A DNA stretch of 52,082 nucleotides from a virus. Positions within the stretch are counted from its first letter, which is position 1. Each line of letters starts with the position of its first letter. Under the pieces are notes generated by a model. That model ran no database searches, was not told where the DNA came from, and saw only the letters and a list, made by a program, of their open reading frames with translations. Below, one piece after another: positions 5,504 through 47,918 of this stretch. The stretch lies in the IMG/VR virus record IMGVR_UViG_3300045988_090625. One strand, 5' to 3'. The position numbers and the translations under genes are program-made.

Positions 5504-6235
5504 ATGGCAAAGAATTGGACAGCTTATGAAGCCGCAAAAGAAATTTATGGAGACAACAAAGAGAACATTGCAGAGATTGGAAGCAGATTTCCATTATTCG
5601 CAAGAACAATCGCAATCTTGAACAATGATTATGTTCTGGATATTCTGAAAGCAATTCCGAAGGTTACTGCAAGAGTTGTTGAAACTGGTCTGAAAGAAAT
5701 GGAAGTTGACGCAGACGTTGAAACAGATGCAGAAACAGAAGTGGAGGAAAAACCAGTTAAAAATACAAAGAAAACAAAATCAGCAGTAGAAGAGGATGAC
5801 GCAGAAGGAACATATGAGAGCATGACAAGCAAAGAGCTGTATGCACTGTGCTGTAAGAGAGGTATTTCTTCCAAGTGCAAATCACGTTCCAAAGATGCAT
5901 TGATTGAACTGTTAAACAAATATGATGCAGGCGAACTTGATGATGAGCCGAAAGCCAAAGCAGGTAAGAAAACAAAACCGGCAAAAAAAGCAGAGCCAGT
6001 TGAGGATGATACAGAAGATGAAGACTGGGACGATGACGATGACGAAGAGGAAGAAGAGAAAGACCCATATGCAGGTAAAACAGCCAGAGAACTGTTTGCA
6101 ATGTGCAAGGAGCGTGGTCTTAAAACAAAACCAAAACAGTCAGCAGAGAGTTATGCAAAACTTCTGAAAGAGGATGATGCGGCAGACGCAGATGATGAAT
6201 CTGAGGAAGATGAAGATGACGAATGGGAAATCTAA
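5504..6235 (+). CDS. Highly acidic protein with two HeH/SAP-like motifs and a '...DEDDEWEI' tail
   Basis: 243 aa; 'MTSKELYALCCKRGISSKCKSRSKDALIELL' and 'KTARELFAMCKERGLKTKPKQSAESYAKLL'; D/E tracts; C-terminal ~100 aa paralogous to C-terminus of ORF 41107-41919. Confidence 0.75.
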   Translation: MAKNWTAYEAAKEIYGDNKENIAEIGSRFPLFARTIAILNNDYVLDILKAIPKVTARVVETGLKEMEVDADVETDAETEVEEKPVKNTKKTKSAVEEDDAEGTYESMTSKELYALCCKRGISSKCKSRSKDALIELLNKYDAGELDDEPKAKAGKKTKPAKKAEPVEDDTEDEDWDDDDDEEEEEKDPYAGKTARELFAMCKERGLKTKPKQSAESYAKLLKEDDAADADDESEEDEDDEWEI

Positions 6236-6408: not shown

Positions 6409-6792
6409 ATGAAAACAGATGACATTTTAAACATTGATGCAGATAAAGAAGAAGGAAAAAGAACCTTAAACAAATTTCTGTGGAAAATAAAGCCATTAAA
6501 AACAAAAGCAATGAAGCAGGGAATACCGCCTAAAGCAGAGTATTTGCCCTTAGAATTGATTGAAACAGCCATACATGGATTGTGTAGCCATTATGGATAT
6601 AGAACGCAAGGAATAGGCAGTTATTTTAATTCTGACGTGTTTCAGTTTTACACAACATGTGTAATGGATGAAAAGAGACAATGGCTTGGAAACGTATATG
6701 GTAAAACATTGTGGGAGATTGAAGCAAAAACATTAATAAAAATATATGGATTAATTCTGGAACAGAAAGGAAGAGAAAATGAAAACAGTTAG
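6409..6792 (+). CDS. Hypothetical protein
   Basis: 127-aa ORF, AAAGGAA RBS; overlaps the RNase H start. Confidence 0.65.
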   Translation: MKTDDILNIDADKEEGKRTLNKFLWKIKPLKTKAMKQGIPPKAEYLPLELIETAIHGLCSHYGYRTQGIGSYFNSDVFQFYTTCVMDEKRQWLGNVYGKTLWEIEAKTLIKIYGLILEQKGRENENS

Positions 6793-7261
6793 CTTTTATA
6801 CAGATGGAGCGTGTAGTGGAAATGGAAAGAAAGAAGAAGGAGCAGGCAATGGTGGCTGGGCTTATGTAGAATGTACAAAGTGCGATTCTGGAATTAAAAC
6901 AAAGGTGGTATCTGGAAACAAAACAAACACAACAAACAATGAAATGGAACTTACAGCAGTATATAAGGCGTTAGTAAAGTCCTTAAAAGCAGGCTATGAA
7001 AATGTAACGATCTATACAGATTCGGCTTACATCGTAAACGCTATAACAAAGGGTTGGTTGTGTAAATGGCGTATTAATGGTTGGCAGACTGTGGAAGGAA
7101 AACAAATTAAAAATAAACAAATATGGGAAAAGATGTTTAAGCTTATATATGAGAAAAACATTAAGCTCACTATGGTAAAGGTAAAAGGGCATAGTACAGA
7201 TATGCTAAATGAATTAGCAGACAATGCCGCAGTCAATGCAAGATTAGAATTGGAGAAGTAA
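6779..7261 (+). CDS. rnhA: Ribonuclease HI
   Basis: 'FYTDGACSGN', 'NNEMELTA', 'IYTDSAY', 'GHS...NELADNAA' match the RNase HI D-E-D-D layout. Confidence 0.9.
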   Translation: MKTVSFYTDGACSGNGKKEEGAGNGGWAYVECTKCDSGIKTKVVSGNKTNTTNNEMELTAVYKALVKSLKAGYENVTIYTDSAYIVNAITKGWLCKWRINGWQTVEGKQIKNKQIWEKMFKLIYEKNIKLTMVKVKGHSTDMLNELADNAAVNARLELEK

Positions 7262-7265
7262 AGCA

Positions 7266-7631
7266 ATGTTAATAAGTGAAAAAGTGCTTGAAAAAACATT
7301 TACAGCAGAAAAGATGAAAGATGCTTATTTGAAAGCATGTAAGTGGGTAAGCAGTAACATTATTGCAATAAACAATTTTGAAAATGTGACAATTAAATAT
7401 GTGAAACAGTCCGAGGGGGTAGTTAAAACAGTAAAGGTTATATTGTATATTACGACAGAAGAAAAAGAAGTGTTTGAAAGGACATGCAACATTTGCAGAG
7501 AGTGTTCATCATTATTTTATTTAGCAGAAAACAAAAACAAATGTGCAAGTTGTGCAATAGAACCATATAGAAAAAGGGAACTTGAAAAGTTGAAAAACAT
7601 AAAAGAAGGATTGAAAGGGAAAATATTATGA
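7266..7631 (+). CDS. Hypothetical protein with C-terminal CxxC...CxxC
   Basis: 121 aa; 'CNICREC...CASCA'. Confidence 0.6.
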   Translation: MLISEKVLEKTFTAEKMKDAYLKACKWVSSNIIAINNFENVTIKYVKQSEGVVKTVKVILYITTEEKEVFERTCNICRECSSLFYLAENKNKCASCAIEPYRKRELEKLKNIKEGLKGKIL

Positions 7632-8047
7632 AATACTGGGTTGAAACAAAAGAAAAGAAACAGAAAAGAAACATTAAGAGCATTTTAAAACAAACATTGA
7701 TTGAACAAACAAACATTATATGCTCATTTATGAAACCAACAAACATTGCAATCATGGTTCAGTTCCTTGTACCTTGTTTTTTGGTAGCGTTAGGATGCAG
7801 TTATGTTACAGCATTAGTAGTGAGTGCCATTACAACGTATTTAACGGCTTATTTAAGGGTTTTAAATGATGTAATGAAAGAAAGTACCAATCATATACCA
7901 ATACCGCCTAGAAAGTTCATAGAAGTTGATAGGGATGGCTTTATAGGATTAAAGAATAAGAATGAAATGCCAGAACTATTACAATATCTGTATGAATTAG
8001 AAACATATTTAGAAAGTAAAGGACGTATTAATAATGGGACGGATTAA
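7628..8047 (+). CDS. Predicted membrane protein
   Basis: 139 aa; hydrophobic stretch 'IAIMVQFLVPCFLVALGCSYVTALVVSAITTYLTAYL'; ATGA overlap with upstream gene. Confidence 0.6.
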   Translation: MKYWVETKEKKQKRNIKSILKQTLIEQTNIICSFMKPTNIAIMVQFLVPCFLVALGCSYVTALVVSAITTYLTAYLRVLNDVMKESTNHIPIPPRKFIEVDRDGFIGLKNKNEMPELLQYLYELETYLESKGRINNGTD

Positions 8048-8207
8048 TAGTGCGCCATGTTTGAAGTGTTCAGATAGAAAAATAGGATGTCATGGCGTAT
8101 GTGTGGATTATATAGAATTTCAGAAAAAACAAAAGCAATTAAGAAAATCAAAAGAAACAGAAAGAATAAAAAGGTCAGCAACATTTAGACCAAAATATTT
8201 TAAATAA
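8034..8207 (+). CDS. Small Cys-rich basic protein (57 aa; below the ORF-track cutoff)
   Basis: My translation: MGRINSAPCLKCSDRKIGCHGVCVDYIEFQKKQKQLRKSKETERIKRSATFRPKYFK; AAGGA 10 nt upstream. Confidence 0.5.
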   Translation: MGRINSAPCLKCSDRKIGCHGVCVDYIEFQKKQKQLRKSKETERIKRSATFRPKYFK

Positions 8208-8233
8208 AAATCACATTTCAAACAAAATAATAG

Positions 8234-8262
8234 TTGACAAACAAATAGAATAGCAGTATAAT
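8234..8262 (+). promoter_or_regulatory. Sigma70-like promoter (consensus TTGACA-N17-TATAAT)
   Basis: TTGACA 8234-8239, TATAAT 8257-8262. Confidence 0.65.
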
Positions 8263-8265
8263 AAA

Positions 8266-8342
8266 GGCAGGTAATAGGAAAGGGCATAAAAAGGATGAAT
8301 GTCTGAGAAAAGGGTAGCCTATAAATACCTGCCTTTTATTTT
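8266..8342 (+). terminator. Structured ~70-nt leader ending in an intrinsic terminator
   Basis: GGCAGGTA(8266-8273)/TACCTGCC(8326-8333) plus TAGG(8275-8278)/CCTA(8318-8321), then TTTTATTTT; starts 4 nt after the -10. Confidence 0.65.
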
Positions 8343-8386
8343 AGAAAACAGTGCAGTGTTCCAATATTAAAAAGGAGCATTAAAAC

Positions 8387-8962
8387 ATGGGAAAAAGAAA
8401 AGGACAAGCACCAGTAACTTACCTTGATGGGACGTTAGACAAATATAATTTGAAAAACAGAACACCAGAAGAAAGGAAAGCATTTGCAAAGAAAGGTGCA
8501 GAAACAAGAAAAAAGAACAAAGAAGAAAAACTGGCATTGCAGAAAGTAATGCGAACATTGTTAAGCATGAGAGTAAGTTCTGATAAACAAAAACAGGTTT
8601 TAAAACAAATCGGTTTTGAAGATTCAGAACTAACAAACAAAACATTGCTCATGACAGCATTATTCAAAAAAGGATTAACAGGTGATGTTAGTGCAATCAA
8701 AGAAATAACAGATATGATGGACAAGTTAGAGTTGTTCGAAAGTGGAAAGGATGTAAGACAGCAACCGGTGATTATCAATCTTGTACCAACAGGAGAACCA
8801 ACACCAATAACAGAACAAGACGAACAGGACATCTGGAAAGCAGAGAACGGTATTCCATTAACAGATACAAAAAATATGGAAGAATGGAACACAGATGATT
8901 CTGAAATATGGAACGAAGAAGTAAACGAAGATGACTGGGGAAATGAAGTATATGACGGTTAA
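8387..8962 (+). CDS. terS: Putative terminase small subunit
   Basis: 191 aa; basic N-terminus, 'TLLMTALFKKGLTGDVSAIKEI' resembles Firmicutes-phage TerS helices, acidic C-terminus. Separated from terL by 3.3 kb. Confidence 0.5.
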   Translation: MGKRKGQAPVTYLDGTLDKYNLKNRTPEERKAFAKKGAETRKKNKEEKLALQKVMRTLLSMRVSSDKQKQVLKQIGFEDSELTNKTLLMTALFKKGLTGDVSAIKEITDMMDKLELFESGKDVRQQPVIINLVPTGEPTPITEQDEQDIWKAENGIPLTDTKNMEEWNTDDSEIWNEEVNEDDWGNEVYDG

Positions 8963-9120
8963 TAAAAGTGCTTTATAAAGCATTTAAAAGCCCATATACA
9001 GATTTTTTATTATACAGGTATATAAGTGTAAAGTAAAAGAAATAAAACCCTTATATAAAGCGTATAATAAATAACAAATATATTTCCTAAAACAGTAATA
9101 AAACAGGAGAACATAAAACA

Positions 9121-9765
9121 ATGGAACAATTAAACATTAAATATAAACCAATAAAGGAATTAAAACCTTATAAGAAAAACGCAAAGAAACATCCGAAAGA
9201 ACAGGTTGAAAGAATTATGAACAGTATTAAGCAGTTCGGGTTCTTTGAACACAGGGCAGTAGCAATTGACAAAGACGATTATGTGGTTGAAGGTCATGGA
9301 AGAATACTTGCGGCAAAGAAAGCAGGACTTACACAAGTGCCTACAATCTGTTTAGATGATATGACTGAGGAACAAATAAAAGCATGGCGTTTGATTGAAA
9401 ACAAAACAGCAGAATCAAGTTATGACGAAACATTGATTAATGAAGAAATCAACGAACTTCTAAAATCAGACATTGACATGGAAGTGTTTGGATTTAGTAT
9501 TGATGCACTGGAAGATGAAACAATAGAAGTTGAACCAGATGTACCATTCACAGAGATATTGAACGAAGAGAACAATTACATTGTGTTGAAGTTCAATAAC
9601 AAGATTGATTGGCTCAATGCTATGGGATTGTTTGGAATCGAGAAAGCAAAGGCGTACCCAACAAAGAAGGAAGGGAACAAGAAGTCATTCGGTATGCGAG
9701 CAGGAGTAGGAAGGGTGCTAGACGGACAGAAAGCGTTAGAAAGGGTGCAGGGTAATGAAGTATAA
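9121..9765 (+). CDS. ParB-like nuclease domain protein
   Basis: 'KPIKELKPYKKNAKKHPKEQVERIMNSIKQFGF...VVEGHGRILAAKKAGLTQVP' matches the ParB N-terminal domain pattern. Confidence 0.8.
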   Translation: MEQLNIKYKPIKELKPYKKNAKKHPKEQVERIMNSIKQFGFFEHRAVAIDKDDYVVEGHGRILAAKKAGLTQVPTICLDDMTEEQIKAWRLIENKTAESSYDETLINEEINELLKSDIDMEVFGFSIDALEDETIEVEPDVPFTEILNEENNYIVLKFNNKIDWLNAMGLFGIEKAKAYPTKKEGNKKSFGMRAGVGRVLDGQKALERVQGNEV

Positions 9766-10564
9766 GGGGAAAGAAATCATTGTTGCTTGTCCGTCTTATA
9801 AACGGTATAAGGTGGAGACGCTAAGTTATATTCCTTTCTGTAAAGTTTATGTTGCACCAGAAGAGTATGAAGCATATCTGGATTTCAACCCGAAACATAC
9901 AGAAAACATTGTGAAGTGTCCGAAAGGTGTACAGGGAAATCTGTGCAGAGTAAGGAACTACATTCTTGATACAGAATTTGAAAATGGTGCAGACATTGTG
10001 TTATTGATTGATGATGATTTAAGAGCCATAGAACATTTTGAAATGTCAGATGATGGAACATATGCGTATGAGAAAGTAAAAGTAAAATCAGATGAATTAC
10101 TAGACTTCTTATATCGTTATTCCTTATTGTGCCATGATTGGGGTTTTAAATTTTGGGGATTGAATTGTAATAGTGATACAATGTCCTATCGGCAGTATTC
10201 TCCATTCAGCACCACATCCTATATAGGTGGTCCGTTCCAGTGTTTCTTAAAAGGGAATGAGCTTAGATATGATGAAAGATTACCGTTGAAAGAAGATTAT
10301 GACATGACCTTACAGAACATGAACCTGTATAGAGGTGCATTGCGGTTAAACAAATATCATTATGTTTGTAGACAGTCAGAACAAAAGGGCGGTTGTGCAA
10401 TGTACCGTAATATGGAAAGGGAAAAAGAACAGTTTGAGTTGTTGAGGCAGAAATGGGGAAGCAACATAGTAAGACTGGACACATCAAACAAAGGACGAAG
10501 CAAAAAGAACAGAAAGTATATAGACTATAATCCGATTATTAAGATACCAATAAAAGGCATATAG
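9755..10564 (+). CDS. Putative GT-A-fold glycosyltransferase
   Basis: 269 aa; 'ADIVLLIDDDL' DxD-type motif, 'LKEDYD' second acidic motif; overlaps the ParB-like gene by 11 nt. Confidence 0.5.
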   Translation: MKYKGKEIIVACPSYKRYKVETLSYIPFCKVYVAPEEYEAYLDFNPKHTENIVKCPKGVQGNLCRVRNYILDTEFENGADIVLLIDDDLRAIEHFEMSDDGTYAYEKVKVKSDELLDFLYRYSLLCHDWGFKFWGLNCNSDTMSYRQYSPFSTTSYIGGPFQCFLKGNELRYDERLPLKEDYDMTLQNMNLYRGALRLNKYHYVCRQSEQKGGCAMYRNMEREKEQFELLRQKWGSNIVRLDTSNKGRSKKNRKYIDYNPIIKIPIKGI

Positions 10565-10571
10565 CAGAGAG

Positions 10572-10598
10572 GGGCAGAACATTGTTTCTGTCCTTTTT
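10572..10598 (+). terminator. Intrinsic terminator
   Basis: GGGCAGAA(10572-10579)/TTCTGTCC(10586-10593) with one G-U, loop CATTGT, then TTTTT. Confidence 0.7.
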
Positions 10599-10627: not shown

Positions 10628-10655
10628 TTGACTTTCTGCTATGTTGTGTTATAAT
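10628..10655 (+). promoter_or_regulatory. Sigma70-like promoter
   Basis: TTGACT 10628-10633, 16-nt spacer, TGTTATAAT ending 10655. Confidence 0.55.
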
Positions 10656-11538: not shown

Positions 11539-11640
11539 AACAATTTGACAGGTGGTTAAAGTCATTAAAACACATTACAATAAAATCCCTTTCCAAGTTG
11601 TGGTGAGTAATCAAACACTGGCAGATGAAAGCCACAACAT

Positions 11641-11711
11641 TGCCCTATGGTGTAAAGGTAGCACACAAGAATTTGACTCTTGTAATACTGGTTCGATTCC
11701 AGTTAGGGTAG
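11641..11711 (+). tRNA. tRNA-Gln (anticodon UUG)
   Basis: Hand-folded cloverleaf. Acceptor TGCCCTA/TAGGGTA (U1-A72, G73 as in bacterial tRNA-Gln). D stem GTGT/GCAC. Anticodon stem CAAGA/TCTTG with loop AT-TTG-AC. T arm ACTGG-TTCGATT-CCAGT. No encoded CCA. Confidence 0.85.
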
Positions 11712-11715
11712 TTAT

Positions 11716-11787
11716 GGGGAAGTGGCGCAGTGGTAGCGCATTGGTCTTATAAACCAGTGGTCATGGGTTCGATTCCTTTCTTCCTAT
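11716..11787 (+). tRNA. Putative tRNA-Ile (anticodon UAU), imperfect stems
   Basis: D arm GCGC-AGTGGTA-GCGC. Anticodon stem TTGGT/ACCAG with loop CT-TAT-AA. T loop TTCGATT. T stem has one U-U mismatch; acceptor GGGGAAG/CTTCCTA has G1-A72 mismatch and G2-U71. Confidence 0.55.
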
Positions 11788-11839
11788 TAGGCGAAAGCCT
11801 TGGAACATATTAACAAAGAACAAATAAGGAGAAACAAAC

Positions 11840-12190: not shown

Positions 12191-12220
12191 TTGACAAACA
12201 TAAAGCAAATATGATATAAT
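12191..12220 (+). promoter_or_regulatory. Sigma70-like promoter
   Basis: TTGACA 12191-12196, 18-nt spacer, TATAAT 12215-12220. Confidence 0.55.
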
Positions 12221-12233
12221 AAAAGAAACAAAG

Positions 12234-12264
12234 GGCAGGTACATAAATGATGTATCTGTCTTTT
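12234..12264 (+). terminator. Terminator-like hairpin in the terL leader
   Basis: GGCAGGTACAT(12234-12244)/ATGTATCTGTC(12250-12260), 11 bp with two G-U, loop AAATG, then TTTT. Confidence 0.6.
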
Positions 12265-12298
12265 GTGGTATTATAAAAACAAAGTGAGGTAAACAAAA

Positions 12299-13648
12299 AT
12301 GCAAGCAGATATTAAAGTATCTGAGCGTTTTGCATCATTTTTAACAGATTGGGATTATACAGAGTATTTGCTTATAGGTGGGTATGGAAGTGGGAAGAGT
12401 TACCACATCGCATTAAAGTTTATTTTAAAACTATTGGAAGAAAAGCGGACAGCATTGGTAGTTAGACAGGTAAAGGAAACAATCAAAGATTCATGTTTTG
12501 CACTGTTTAAAGATATACTTGAAACAATGAACATGCTTTCTGATACAACAACAAATAAAACAAAAGCCATAGATGGAAAAGTAATAGCAGTTAGTTCTCC
12601 AATGGAGATAAGATTTCCAAACGGTTCAAAAATCATATTTAGAGGTGTTGACAATCCAGAGAAATTAAAGTCAATTCATGGAGTTTCAATGGTTTGGATT
12701 GAAGAGTGTTCAGAAGTAAGATATGATGCTTATACAGAACTATTAGGACGTATTAGGACACCAAACAAAACATTATACACGTTTCTGTCTTGTAATCCAG
12801 TAGGGAAAGAAAACTGGGTTTACAATACGTTCTTTACACATTTGGAAGAAAACGGAGAAACAACAGTTATTTGTGATGAAAATAGATTTTACAGGGCAGG
12901 GACATTGGTCATAAATGGAACATACTATCATCATAGTGTACCAACAGATAATCCATTTTTACCAAAAGCCTATATTGAAAGATTGGATAAATTAAAAATG
13001 TCCGACCCTCGTTTATGGGTAGTAGCAAGGTGGGGACGTTTTGGTGCTAATGGAACAAGAGTTTTACCACAGTTTGAAATTGCTAGAAATTCAAAACAGT
13101 TTGTAAATGCAGTAAACAGTATTACATCACAGTATCACTTCTTTGGTTTGGACTTTGGATTTGAAACATCATACAATGCACTTATAAGTTGTTGTGTTGA
13201 TGATGCAAACAAAATCTTGTACATCTATGATGAAGTATACAGAAACAAAATAACAGACGATAAATTCAGCAATCTTGATTCTGTAAATAAAACAATGGAA
13301 CGTGCAGAAAGATGTAACAAACCAATATGTGCAGATAGTGCTGAGCCTAAAACAATCCAGTATTATAGACAGCAAGGTTTTAACATGTATGGATGTAAAA
13401 AATACATTGGAAGTAGGTTGGCAAATACAAAGAAAATAAAACGATTCAACAGAATAGTATGCTCACCAAAATGTAAAAACACTATAAGGGAATTAAAGGA
13501 CTTAACCTATGCAAAGGATTCAAAAGGAAATGCTGTTTATGATGAATTTAATATTGACCCACATACATTTTCTGCTTTGTGGTATGCGTTAGATACATAT
13601 ACAGTAGCCGATATAAAGGAAATAAAGACGAATAGCAAGGCAGGATGA
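12299..13648 (+). CDS. terL: Terminase large subunit (PBSX/XtmB-like)
   Basis: Walker A 'GGYGSGKS', Walker B-like 'MVWIEECSE', C-terminal nuclease-type acidic motifs 'GLDFGF', 'CADSAEP'; 449 aa. Confidence 0.9.
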   Translation: MQADIKVSERFASFLTDWDYTEYLLIGGYGSGKSYHIALKFILKLLEEKRTALVVRQVKETIKDSCFALFKDILETMNMLSDTTTNKTKAIDGKVIAVSSPMEIRFPNGSKIIFRGVDNPEKLKSIHGVSMVWIEECSEVRYDAYTELLGRIRTPNKTLYTFLSCNPVGKENWVYNTFFTHLEENGETTVICDENRFYRAGTLVINGTYYHHSVPTDNPFLPKAYIERLDKLKMSDPRLWVVARWGRFGANGTRVLPQFEIARNSKQFVNAVNSITSQYHFFGLDFGFETSYNALISCCVDDANKILYIYDEVYRNKITDDKFSNLDSVNKTMERAERCNKPICADSAEPKTIQYYRQQGFNMYGCKKYIGSRLANTKKIKRFNRIVCSPKCKNTIRELKDLTYAKDSKGNAVYDEFNIDPHTFSALWYALDTYTVADIKEIKTNSKAG

Positions 13649-37412: not shown

Positions 37413-37444
37413 GGGTTGACAAGTTCAACCCTTTGATATATAAT
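37413..37444 (+). promoter_or_regulatory. Hairpin-embedded promoter
   Basis: GGGTTGA(37413-37419)/TCAACCC(37425-37431) stem contains the -35 TTGACA 37416-37421; N17; TATAAT 37439-37444. Confidence 0.6.
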
Positions 37445-42147: not shown

Positions 42148-42158
42148 AAACAATTTTA

Positions 42159-42190
42159 GGGTTGACATAGTTCAACCCTTTTGTTATAAT
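42159..42190 (+). promoter_or_regulatory. Hairpin-embedded promoter (near-copy of 37413-37444)
   Basis: GGGTTGA(42159-42165)/TCAACCC(42172-42178), then TTTT; -35 TTGACA 42162-42167; N17; TATAAT 42185-42190. Confidence 0.65.
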
Positions 42191-47702: not shown

Positions 47703-47893
47703 TAAACTTTTTAATATTTGAGATAATATGTATAGCAATTTTATTTATTGTCGTATGGGTTATTTTAACGAATTATATCATATCATATTTGAGAGACATT
47801 AGCAGATTAGTAGACAAAGGATTTGAAAACATAGAAAAGGCGATATATGATAGTGCTGAAAGAATAATAAAATATTTAGACAAAAGGGATTGA
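47690..47893 (+). CDS. Small membrane protein
   Basis: TM 'FLINFLIFEIICIAILFIVVWVILTNYII'; 67 aa; stop lies inside the following hairpin/promoter. Confidence 0.6.
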   Translation: MEFLINFLIFEIICIAILFIVVWVILTNYIISYLRDISRLVDKGFENIEKAIYDSAERIIKYLDKRD

Positions 47894-47918
47894 CATTGTG
47901 CAATCCCTATGTTATTAT
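47886..47918 (+). promoter_or_regulatory. Hairpin-embedded promoter
   Basis: GGGATTG(47886-47892)/CAATCCC(47901-47907); -35 TTGACA 47890-47895; N17; TATTAT 47913-47918. Confidence 0.55.

Follow-up and report, generated by a model that had tools for sequence, protein, structure and literature searches.

What is the role of a structured leader that stands between a perfect host-type promoter and the first gene behind it? This question is raised by positions 8234-8342 of IMG/VR record IMGVR_UViG_3300045988_090625, a tailed-phage genome of ~33% GC with almost all of its genes on the + strand; the whole stretch of 52,082 nt that was analyzed is referred to here as the window. A first-pass annotation had described the segment as a structured promoter-proximal leader, in which a consensus promoter is followed by a long-range helix and a U tract, upstream of a gene that we call gene X. 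We confirmed the segment as such: the promoter agrees with the consensus at every position (Table 1), and the minimum free energy (MFE) fold of the RNA from 8263 to 8345 reproduces the claimed pairing and U tract exactly. The ~40 nt between the two arms of the helix had been regarded as an unmatched loop. They indeed correspond to no known class, but they hold a conserved junction, which becomes visible only when relatives are compared. On such sequence comparison, the real finding at this locus is a new leader RNA motif, supported by covariation and embedded in a terminator only in the lineage of the window.

A conserved three-way junction within the supposed loop

We gathered homologues of gene X from IMG/VR, metagenomes, Logan assemblies and one metagenome-assembled genome (MAG), and compared their leaders. 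In the first informative relatives (L003, L264, L265 and L266), the promoter is followed by a GGAG or GGAA block and by a hairpin with the loop GGAU, the stem of which (P1) differs in sequence among the four loci yet stays complementary. The 3' half consists of an A-rich linker ending in AGU, then G(G/A)UAGCC, 3-11 nt, AAAU(A/G)(C/U)C and U(G/A)CC. Altogether, 64 distinct variants could be parsed into a single three-way-junction architecture, with a closing helix (P0) and two hairpins (P1 and P2). A plain MAFFT alignment (A2) set P1 out of register; N-padded, structure-guided alignments were used instead, namely A3 (15 variants), from which the covariance model R1 was built, and A5 (48 of the 64 variants).

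The covariation score was 0.61 in A3, compared with 0.17 in shuffles, and 0.68 in A5, compared with 0.21 in shuffles (0/500) and a maximum of 0.18 with slid partners. In A5, 12 of the 15 pairs showed changes on both sides. Both alignments were fitted to the structure and the parser demanded complementarity in P2, so that the proportions of paired cells (99.4% in A3; 97.6% in A5, where P1 and P2 are 100% paired) lean towards the model, a bias that is mitigated by covariance-model matches independent of the parser filter and by the variety of pair types, which reaches six per position in P1 and P2. For example, P2 occurs as GGUA:UACC, GAUA:UAUC, GGUA:UGCC, GACA:UGUC, AACA:UGUU, AAUA:UAUU, GUUA:UAAC and GAUG:CAUC. 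P0 contains only two firm pairs, with an exchange of G:C to A:U in L318, L322 and L389. The covariance analysis of homologous leaders strongly supported the junction, and left the long helix without comparative support. The junction also contains ~17 invariant or nearly invariant nucleotides that are unpaired or close a helix. The junction fold alone is worth just -2.8 kcal/mol; because its helices are too weak by themselves, the junction would need tertiary contacts or a partner.

G-U pairs are frequent in this structure, with 17 U-G at one pair of P2 and 21 at the closing pair of P1, and it is their number that ties the structure to the + strand. This bears on the idea that the conserved element acts as DNA, for instance as a pac or origin site or as a protein-binding site beside a packaging gene. 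The element does adjoin a gene of terS-like build at the boundary of the replication and packaging modules. However, in the opposite strand the G-U pairs would turn into A-C mismatches, compensatory changes keep the hairpins, and the position is fixed at ~10 nt past the promoter, all of which make a role at the DNA level very improbable.

We searched for known RNA families with the 4227 models of Rfam 15. At the gathering thresholds, tRNAs alone passed, in the window (two) and in 20 relatives. At E<=10, positions 8100-8500 yielded nothing relevant and no riboswitch class, including RF00167, in line with the original remark that the loop matches none. One match, to the DUF2815 RNA (RF03084) at 8311-8389, reached 18.1 bits against a gathering score of 41.2 (E 0.87), owed most of its score to AGGGTAGCC and the ribosome-binding site, and was attributed to chance. 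No such match was found in the leader of L005, the sole relative searched at E<=10, and no relative reached the gathering score. Judged against Rfam 15, and not against the 10,006 candidates of Fremin et al. (2023), the predicted junction represents a novel RNA motif that is restricted to this family of phages.

The distribution of the motif was equally restricted. Model R1 matched the window at 8271-8337 (55.3 bits, E about 1e-12) as its sole copy, the next best score with the filters off being 15 bits. Of 162 related gut-phage loci, about 158 gave a match, one each, invariably on the + strand and 5' of gene X, at a distance of 150-450 nt from that gene (250-320 nt in the L005 group). A specific pattern scan of IMG/VR gave 31 matches, 29 in contigs of the gene X family and two by chance in coding DNA. 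The loose patterns AGGATGAA..GGTAGCC and GGTAGCC..ATACCTGCC gave >115 matches each, nearly all by chance, and only those in window-like contigs and L003 were real. The motif is also present in an unannotated gap of the cultured Clostridium phage CS266P3, and a search of GTDB genomes for a prophage or host returned a single MAG contig, probably the phage itself. The motif-bearing family consists of ~45-53 kb phages from human-gut Clostridia. In other words, the motif is compact, backed by covariation and, within a phage family that is widespread in the human gut, limited to the leader of a single operon, and the cultured members (Clostridium phages CS266P1-4 on Clostridium_AP sp. DA266) make it directly testable.

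Table 1. Features of the gene X leader and of its surroundings; positions refer to the window unless another locus is named
Feature	Position	Strand	Description and basis
Sigma-70/sigma-A-type promoter	8234-8262	+	-35 TTGACA 8234-8239, 17-nt spacer, -10 TATAAT 8257-8262; 12/12 match
Predicted transcription start	8268-8271, most likely A8269 (7 nt past -10)	+	Inside 5' arm of long helix
5' arm of long helix	8266-8278	+	GGCAGGTA 8266-8273, a, TAGG 8275-8278; pairs with 8318-8321 and 8326-8333 in MFE fold
3' arm of long helix	8318-8333	+	CCTA 8318-8321 (in L2), taaa, TACCTGCC 8326-8333 (3' strands of P2 and P0)
U tract	8334-8342	+	TTTTATTTT; read from sequence
Three-way-junction leader RNA, ~57 nt	8277-8333	+	Within supposed "loop"; covariance model R1 and covariation
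P0	8277-8280 with 8330-8333	+	Closing helix, 2-3 bp
P1	8282-8287 with 8299-8304	+	Hairpin stem
L1	8288-8298	+	GGAU 8293-8296 nearly invariant (47/48 variants)
J1/2	8305-8312	+	A-rich junction
P2	8313-8316 with 8326-8329	+	4-bp hairpin stem
L2	8317-8325	+	GCC...AAA loop
Inserted leader domain	L302 2830-2935; also L305, L326, L331, L342, L389, L005		Between motif and gene X
Shine-Dalgarno AAGGAG and ATG of gene X	8372-8377 and 8387-8389	+	Read from sequence
Gene X	8387-8962	+	191 aa; basic N-terminus, helical core, acidic C-terminal tail ending DDWGNEVYDG
ParB-like nuclease-domain gene	9121-9765	+	Pfam ParB_N, PHROG
TET-associated glycosyltransferase (TAGT)	9755-10564	+	Pfam TAGT, PHROG
Terminator of gene X unit	10567-10598	+	Terminator scan; strong
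tRNA-Gln(TTG) and tRNA-Ile(TAT), adjacent	11640-11788		Between putative modification unit and TerL
Perfect promoter and terminator-like hairpin	12191-12220 and 12228-12267	+	12/12; precedes TerL
TerL	12299-13648	+	Followed by portal, capsid
RNase H	6779-7261		Upstream gene; Pfam
Cys-rich 121-aa protein	7266-7631		CxxC...CxxC; upstream
Small Cys4 protein	8034-8207	+	57 aa, basic tail; last gene before promoter
Very acidic 243-aa protein	5504-6235		Two basic-segment copies, ELYALCCKRGISSKCKSRSKDALIELL and ELFAMCKERGLKTKPKQSAESYAKLL; weak PHROG matches only

Promoter, start site and terminator helix

The promoter at 8234 is not special within this genome. The window contains 11 perfect promoters of the form TTGACA-N17/18-TATAAT, all on the + strand (8234, 11103, 12191, 21347, 29596, 30050, 37416, 37826, 40770, 42162 and 51959), far above the ~0.1 that we estimate to be expected by chance from base composition, and there are many with 11 of 12 matches as well. 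Some of the consensus promoters are located within structural genes. An equivalent promoter (TTGAC[AT]-N16-18-TAnnnT) was found at a fixed distance 5' of the junction motif in 153 of 163 loci, the spacing from the -10 element to P0 being 8-16 nt among relatives and, within that range, 14 nt in the window. Given that transcription usually starts 6-9 nt past the -10 element, the start is predicted at A8269. The first ~10 nt past the start are variable across the family (A-rich, with no conserved TAnnnT), and conservation begins at the GGAG of P0.

We computed the folding of RNAs with different 5' ends. The RNA 8263-8345 forms the long helix with an inner hairpin at -23.1 kcal/mol (z-score -3.61), and none of 200 shuffled sequences was as stable; the region enclosed by the stem 8266-8278/8318-8333, ~40 nt, is atypical for an intrinsic terminator. 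RNAs starting at 8263 or 8266 form the long helix (-23.1 and -20.8 kcal/mol, respectively). For RNAs starting at 8269-8271, the MFE is -11.2 kcal/mol and the long helix is absent, leaving P1 and a weak hairpin into which part of the U tract is drawn; a start at A8269 would remove the three G-C pairs adjoining that tract. With a start predicted inside the 5' arm, one expects the complete terminator mainly in read-through RNA from the upstream operon. The region from the stop codon at 8207 to the promoter has no terminator, so the upstream operon has none before the promoter. The first-pass claim that transcripts stop before gene X may thus hold for read-through RNA, in which a stem followed by a U tract is present and a full terminator is possible, and is doubtful for the promoter's own RNA. 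For the same reason, the terminated RNA of ~70 nt that had been predicted is doubtful, because the promoter's RNA probably starts in the 5' arm and lacks the three G-C pairs.

These results also reduce the appeal of a stand-alone product, in which the promoter and terminator would make an abundant small RNA, ~65-75 nt long here and as long as ~300 nt in relatives. Such an RNA would act in trans, for instance by sponging a protein or as an anti-defence RNA, with gene X expressed by leakage. A perfect promoter followed by a terminator ahead of any open reading frame (ORF) would suit such an RNA, as would the conserved structure and the parallel with the lambda 6S RNA that had been drawn earlier. 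Nevertheless, the terminator fold of the window destroys the junction, the promoter's own RNA probably lacks the full terminator, gene X has no promoter of its own past the hairpin, and the motif occurs once per genome, strictly tied to the leader of gene X, as cis elements typically do. We consider a trans-acting small RNA improbable.

The long helix was limited to a near-identical clade (the window, L001, L002, L268 and L269). The nearest non-identical relative, L264, which has 72% protein identity, shows no long helix and has a separate hairpin instead; the long helix is consequently young and is not itself backed by covariation. The junction fold and the terminator fold are mutually exclusive in the window, because both need the strand 8326-8333 in the 3' arm. 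The long helix ends 54 nt 5' of the gene X ATG, about where relatives place their hairpin.

Across the family, the order is as follows: a gene for a small Cys4 protein, the consensus promoter, 8-16 nt, the junction, a spacer, a hairpin, the ribosome-binding site and gene X. The motif and the gene are separated by a spacer of 53 to ~355 nt. Outside the window clade, practically every lineage has a separate GC hairpin with a U-rich tail ahead of gene X, at 35-55 nt from the gene by one count and mostly at 22-50 nt by another (74-78 nt in the L295 group). Many relatives carry, after the motif, a domain of 100-200 nt closed by a long-range helix of 12-16 bp; the window has none, and its clade represents a minimal form with neither a spacer domain nor a separate hairpin. 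The inserted domains often contain a C/U-rich, CCUCC-like stretch followed by AAAG, and yielded no Rfam family at the gathering score in the 20 relatives scanned. Mini-ORFs in the leader (MNV followed by a stop codon, and a 23-aa ORF from 8299) were rejected, as they are not conserved in L003, and those on the minus strand of the variable domain of relatives were rejected likewise for lack of conservation. Elsewhere in the window, terminator-like hairpins at 42158-42190, 47885-47918 and 37413-37444 include, in stem or loop, the -35 element TTGACA belonging to the promoter that follows, and the hairpins 42158-42179, 47885-47908 and 37413-37431 look like compact overlaps of a terminator with that promoter.

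The strongest rival to a role of the junction in termination takes the two structures apart. The long helix would be the intrinsic terminator of the upstream (early/middle) operon, overlapping the next promoter, and the junction would be an operator or stability element in the 5'-untranslated region of the gene X mRNA, unrelated to termination, for example a site at which translation or decay is controlled by the gene X protein, by the Cys4 protein encoded upstream or by a GGA-binding protein of the CsrA type. The predicted start inside the 5' arm, which leaves the full terminator to upstream transcripts only, is consistent with this explanation, as are the lack of a terminator between the upstream stop codon and the promoter, the other window terminators that overlap the next promoter (the three compact hairpins above), the position of the motif always at the extreme 5' end, and helices too weak to fold unaided. 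Moreover, the P1 loop, (A/U)GGAU, and the 5' strand, GGAG/GGAA, resemble protein sites with GGA in a loop, such as those of CsrA/RsmA. On the other hand, elsewhere in the family the hairpin lies 3' of both the start and the motif, so that the promoter's own RNA meets it; a generic stabiliser needs no nearly invariant loop and junction nucleotides; and binding of the CsrA type leaves the conservation of P2, L2 and J1/2 unexplained. This explanation is a possible one, though we think it unlikely to be correct. Even as no more than an operator for a protein or a stabiliser, the junction would represent a new and well-defined RNA family, useful for annotating gut viromes.

Gene X, its operon and a parallel module before TerL

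The first-pass annotation had taken gene X for terS, the gene of the small terminase subunit. This identification was not supported. Gene X gave a single PHROG match (phrog_2412, of unknown function), no Pfam family, TerS families included, and no PDB sequence in a profile search, and none of its 115 homologues is informatively named. Its AlphaFold2 model (pLDDT 66) had no significant match in the PDB by Foldseek, and one significant fold match in BFVD (E 9.5e-05) was to an unnamed protein. Nor is terL adjacent: it stands 3.9 kb downstream, and between the end of gene X and the start of terL lie 3.3 kb that hold the ParB-like gene, the TAGT gene, small ORFs and two tRNAs. A divergent TerS identity for gene X is conceivable, but not demonstrable. 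In the alignment of the family (A1), the tail ends in a nearly invariant (D/E)(D/E)WG(N/T)(D/E)VY(D/E/N)G after a variable acidic linker, and looks like a docking peptide.

The ParB-like and TAGT genes that follow gene X suggest a DNA hypermodification module; L264 carries two TAGT genes. The next promoter after this unit is at 10628. Because TerL and later genes have consensus promoters of their own, the gene X operon does not represent the whole late region. Relatives, too, carry tRNAs downstream of gene X.

Upstream of the promoter, the genes include one for a membrane protein and those for RNase H and two Cys-rich proteins (Table 1). ORFs with the pattern PC..C..R...CH..C stand directly before the promoter in 8 of 10 other representative loci and in CS266P3; as for the exceptions, the sequence of L264 ends short of the position in question, and L293 retains only a C-terminal remnant. 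The Cys4 protein of the window gave no Pfam or PHROG match, and its homologues were close relatives only, none of them named. Its role as a trans-acting partner of the junction is speculative. The position of the Cys4 and the 121-aa Cys-rich proteins is conserved across the family, and neither could be assigned to a family.

A parallel module was found before TerL, where a perfect promoter is followed by a hairpin of 17 bp (-22 kcal/mol, z -5.9) that ends 32 nt before the TerL start codon, with a 5' arm (AAAGGGCAGGTA) similar to 8263-8273. The layout of promoter, hairpin and TerL is shared by CS266P3 with a different sequence (L403, 7369-7497). Given this second case, here and in CS266P3, promoter-proximal terminator-like hairpins are a recurring device in this phage group. 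The likeness to lambda PR'-tR' that had been proposed is therefore kept alive in a general form: the order of promoter, RNA, terminator-like hairpin and gene holds family-wide and has a counterpart at TerL, whereas the unit served comprises three genes and no terS was demonstrated.

A possible cis-acting role and known systems

Because the distance to the promoter is fixed, the distance to the hairpin is variable and the unpaired nucleotides are nearly invariant, the junction would best fit a factor-dependent element that acts at a distance on the polymerase. We tentatively propose that it is a cis-acting leader controlling passage through the terminator, by analogy with put or nut and not with a riboswitch, while accepting that this may well be wrong. 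According to this proposal, the host-type consensus promoter would fire and, after a few unpaired nucleotides, the RNA would begin with the ~57-nt junction, held by tertiary contacts or by a partner, such as the RNA polymerase or a protein of phage or host origin. The folded junction would then let the transcribing polymerase pass the terminator into the gene X, ParB-like and glycosyltransferase unit, acting at a distance in the manner of HK022 put or of an RNA-plus-protein site of the nut/conAn type, and not through alternative pairing as riboswitches do. In the window, the separate hairpin would be replaced by the 5' arm, pairing with the 3' strand of the junction (8318-8333) ahead of the U tract; a complete terminator would exist only in RNA arriving from the upstream operon, since the promoter's own RNA probably starts at A8269.

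We further analyzed the possibility that the motif competes with the terminator by alternative pairing. In the MFE structure of L003, the 3' strand of the motif pairs with the 5' arm of the terminator, as an antiterminator would, and comparable complementarity is seen in L265 and L331. In a comparison of 29 lineages, however, the motif 3' strand was no more complementary to its matched terminator 5' arm than to mismatched arms (-3.9 versus -4.2 kcal/mol, p 0.81), and a family-wide antiterminator pairing was rejected. As the spacer varies and family-wide complementarity was not found, action at a distance is favored over a local switch. The riboswitch or attenuator reading, which had been put on an equal footing with the lambda parallel, is weakened by this lack of co-evolution.

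A small-molecule riboswitch, with the junction as aptamer and the terminator as expression platform, could nevertheless account for the compact three-way junction, its ~17 conserved nucleotides, the loops that could kiss through GG in L1 and CC in L2, and the strand that the aptamer 3' side shares with the terminator 3' arm in the window. The antiterminator-like fold of L003, with its parallels in L265 and L331, would also fit, and the operon encodes DNA-modification enzymes that use metabolites. This must be set against the absence of any Rfam class even at E<10, a closing helix of just 2-3 bp, a spacer to the terminator of 53 to ~355 nt that often contains a large inserted domain, the pairing that did not co-evolve, and the opposite logic that the window and L003 would have. 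A riboswitch therefore seems quite unlikely.

The proposed cis-acting control of read-through has weaknesses of its own. The hairpins of the relatives are only terminator-like and could be stabilisers or processing sites, and several have poor U tracts (e.g. CUAAAAGUGUAUUU, CUAUAAGUAUAUAU). Read-through transcripts carry the motif too, so that a put-like element would not tell such RNA apart in the relatives. Processivity is not obviously needed, because the unit in the window has no further terminator before 10567. Under the assumption of a local switch, the logic in L003 would be the reverse of that in the window. The leader of TerL has a hairpin and no junction motif. Finally, no antiterminator protein was found, the neighbors being without Pfam matches and without the ConAn1 domain (PF17362).

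The family itself offers a natural experiment, in that the motif lies within the terminator in the window clade and apart from it in the relatives, which could separate a local switch from action at a distance. If the junction does control read-through, it would add a rare RNA-based device of antitermination or attenuation, and would show how phages with many consensus host promoters time an operon that includes DNA-hypermodification enzymes.

We compared the locus with four known systems. Like purine-type "tuning-fork" riboswitches, it has a three-way junction, loops with GG and CC and a place in the 5' leader before a terminator. It differs in that RF00167 gives no match, P0 and P2 measure 2-3 bp and 4 bp, two of the three junction strands have 0-1 nt, and no expression platform is conserved. 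[quoted passage not shown] The order of small protein gene, structured RNA and terminator is shared, and the 100-200 nt domain of the relatives, closed by its 12-16 bp inverted repeat, recalls conAn2, although the window has no large domain. Here, in contrast, the protein gene is separated from the RNA by a promoter, and the conserved core has ~57 nt compared with ~380 nt. ConAn1 was not found upstream of the RNA, as the ORFs within 7266-8207, and gene X as well, gave no Pfam match at E<=0.01.

With the PR'-qut-tR' region of lambda and its Q protein, the locus shares a strong, constitutive-looking promoter followed by a terminator at an early/late boundary, and a small, regulator-sized gene directly upstream of the promoter in the window. 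In lambda, the determinants are a Q-binding DNA element and a sigma-dependent pause, whereas an RNA structure with covariation was found here; in addition, the unit here has three genes only, and later genes have their own promoters. A protein of the Q family was not found, the Pfam scan of seven flanking ORFs (6779-10564) having returned RNase H, ParB_N and TAGT only, and a -10-like pause element of the lambda type was not found in the initially transcribed region across the family.

The put RNA suppresses termination through the zinc-binding domain of the RNA polymerase beta' subunit, with no protein factor. In HK022, put comprises ~70 nt with two stem-loops and lies just after PL (PMC9378689). 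There is no evident homology of sequence or structure between put and the junction, which has much shorter helices, a third, closing helix, one copy per genome and a Gram-positive anaerobe as host. Both are phage-encoded elements of ~60-70 nt with two stem-loops, placed directly past a strong promoter and before terminators; P1 and P2 fall within ~57 nt that begin 1-9 nt past the predicted start, and the junction, by analogy, would exert its effect on the polymerase in cis, over a distance that varies. A bolder version holds that the junction is a new class of RNA-based processive antiterminator, which would load on the polymerase after promoter escape, alone or with the Cys4 protein, and carry it past the gene X terminator and past later promoter-proximal terminators such as 10567-10598 and the hairpin 12228-12267 of the TerL leader. 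We regard this version as rather unlikely. If correct, the junction would determine when the DNA-modification and packaging genes are expressed. With put, EAR and conAn2 as its three predecessors, it would be the fourth such class, and no earlier one would come from phages that infect Gram-positive anaerobes of the gut.

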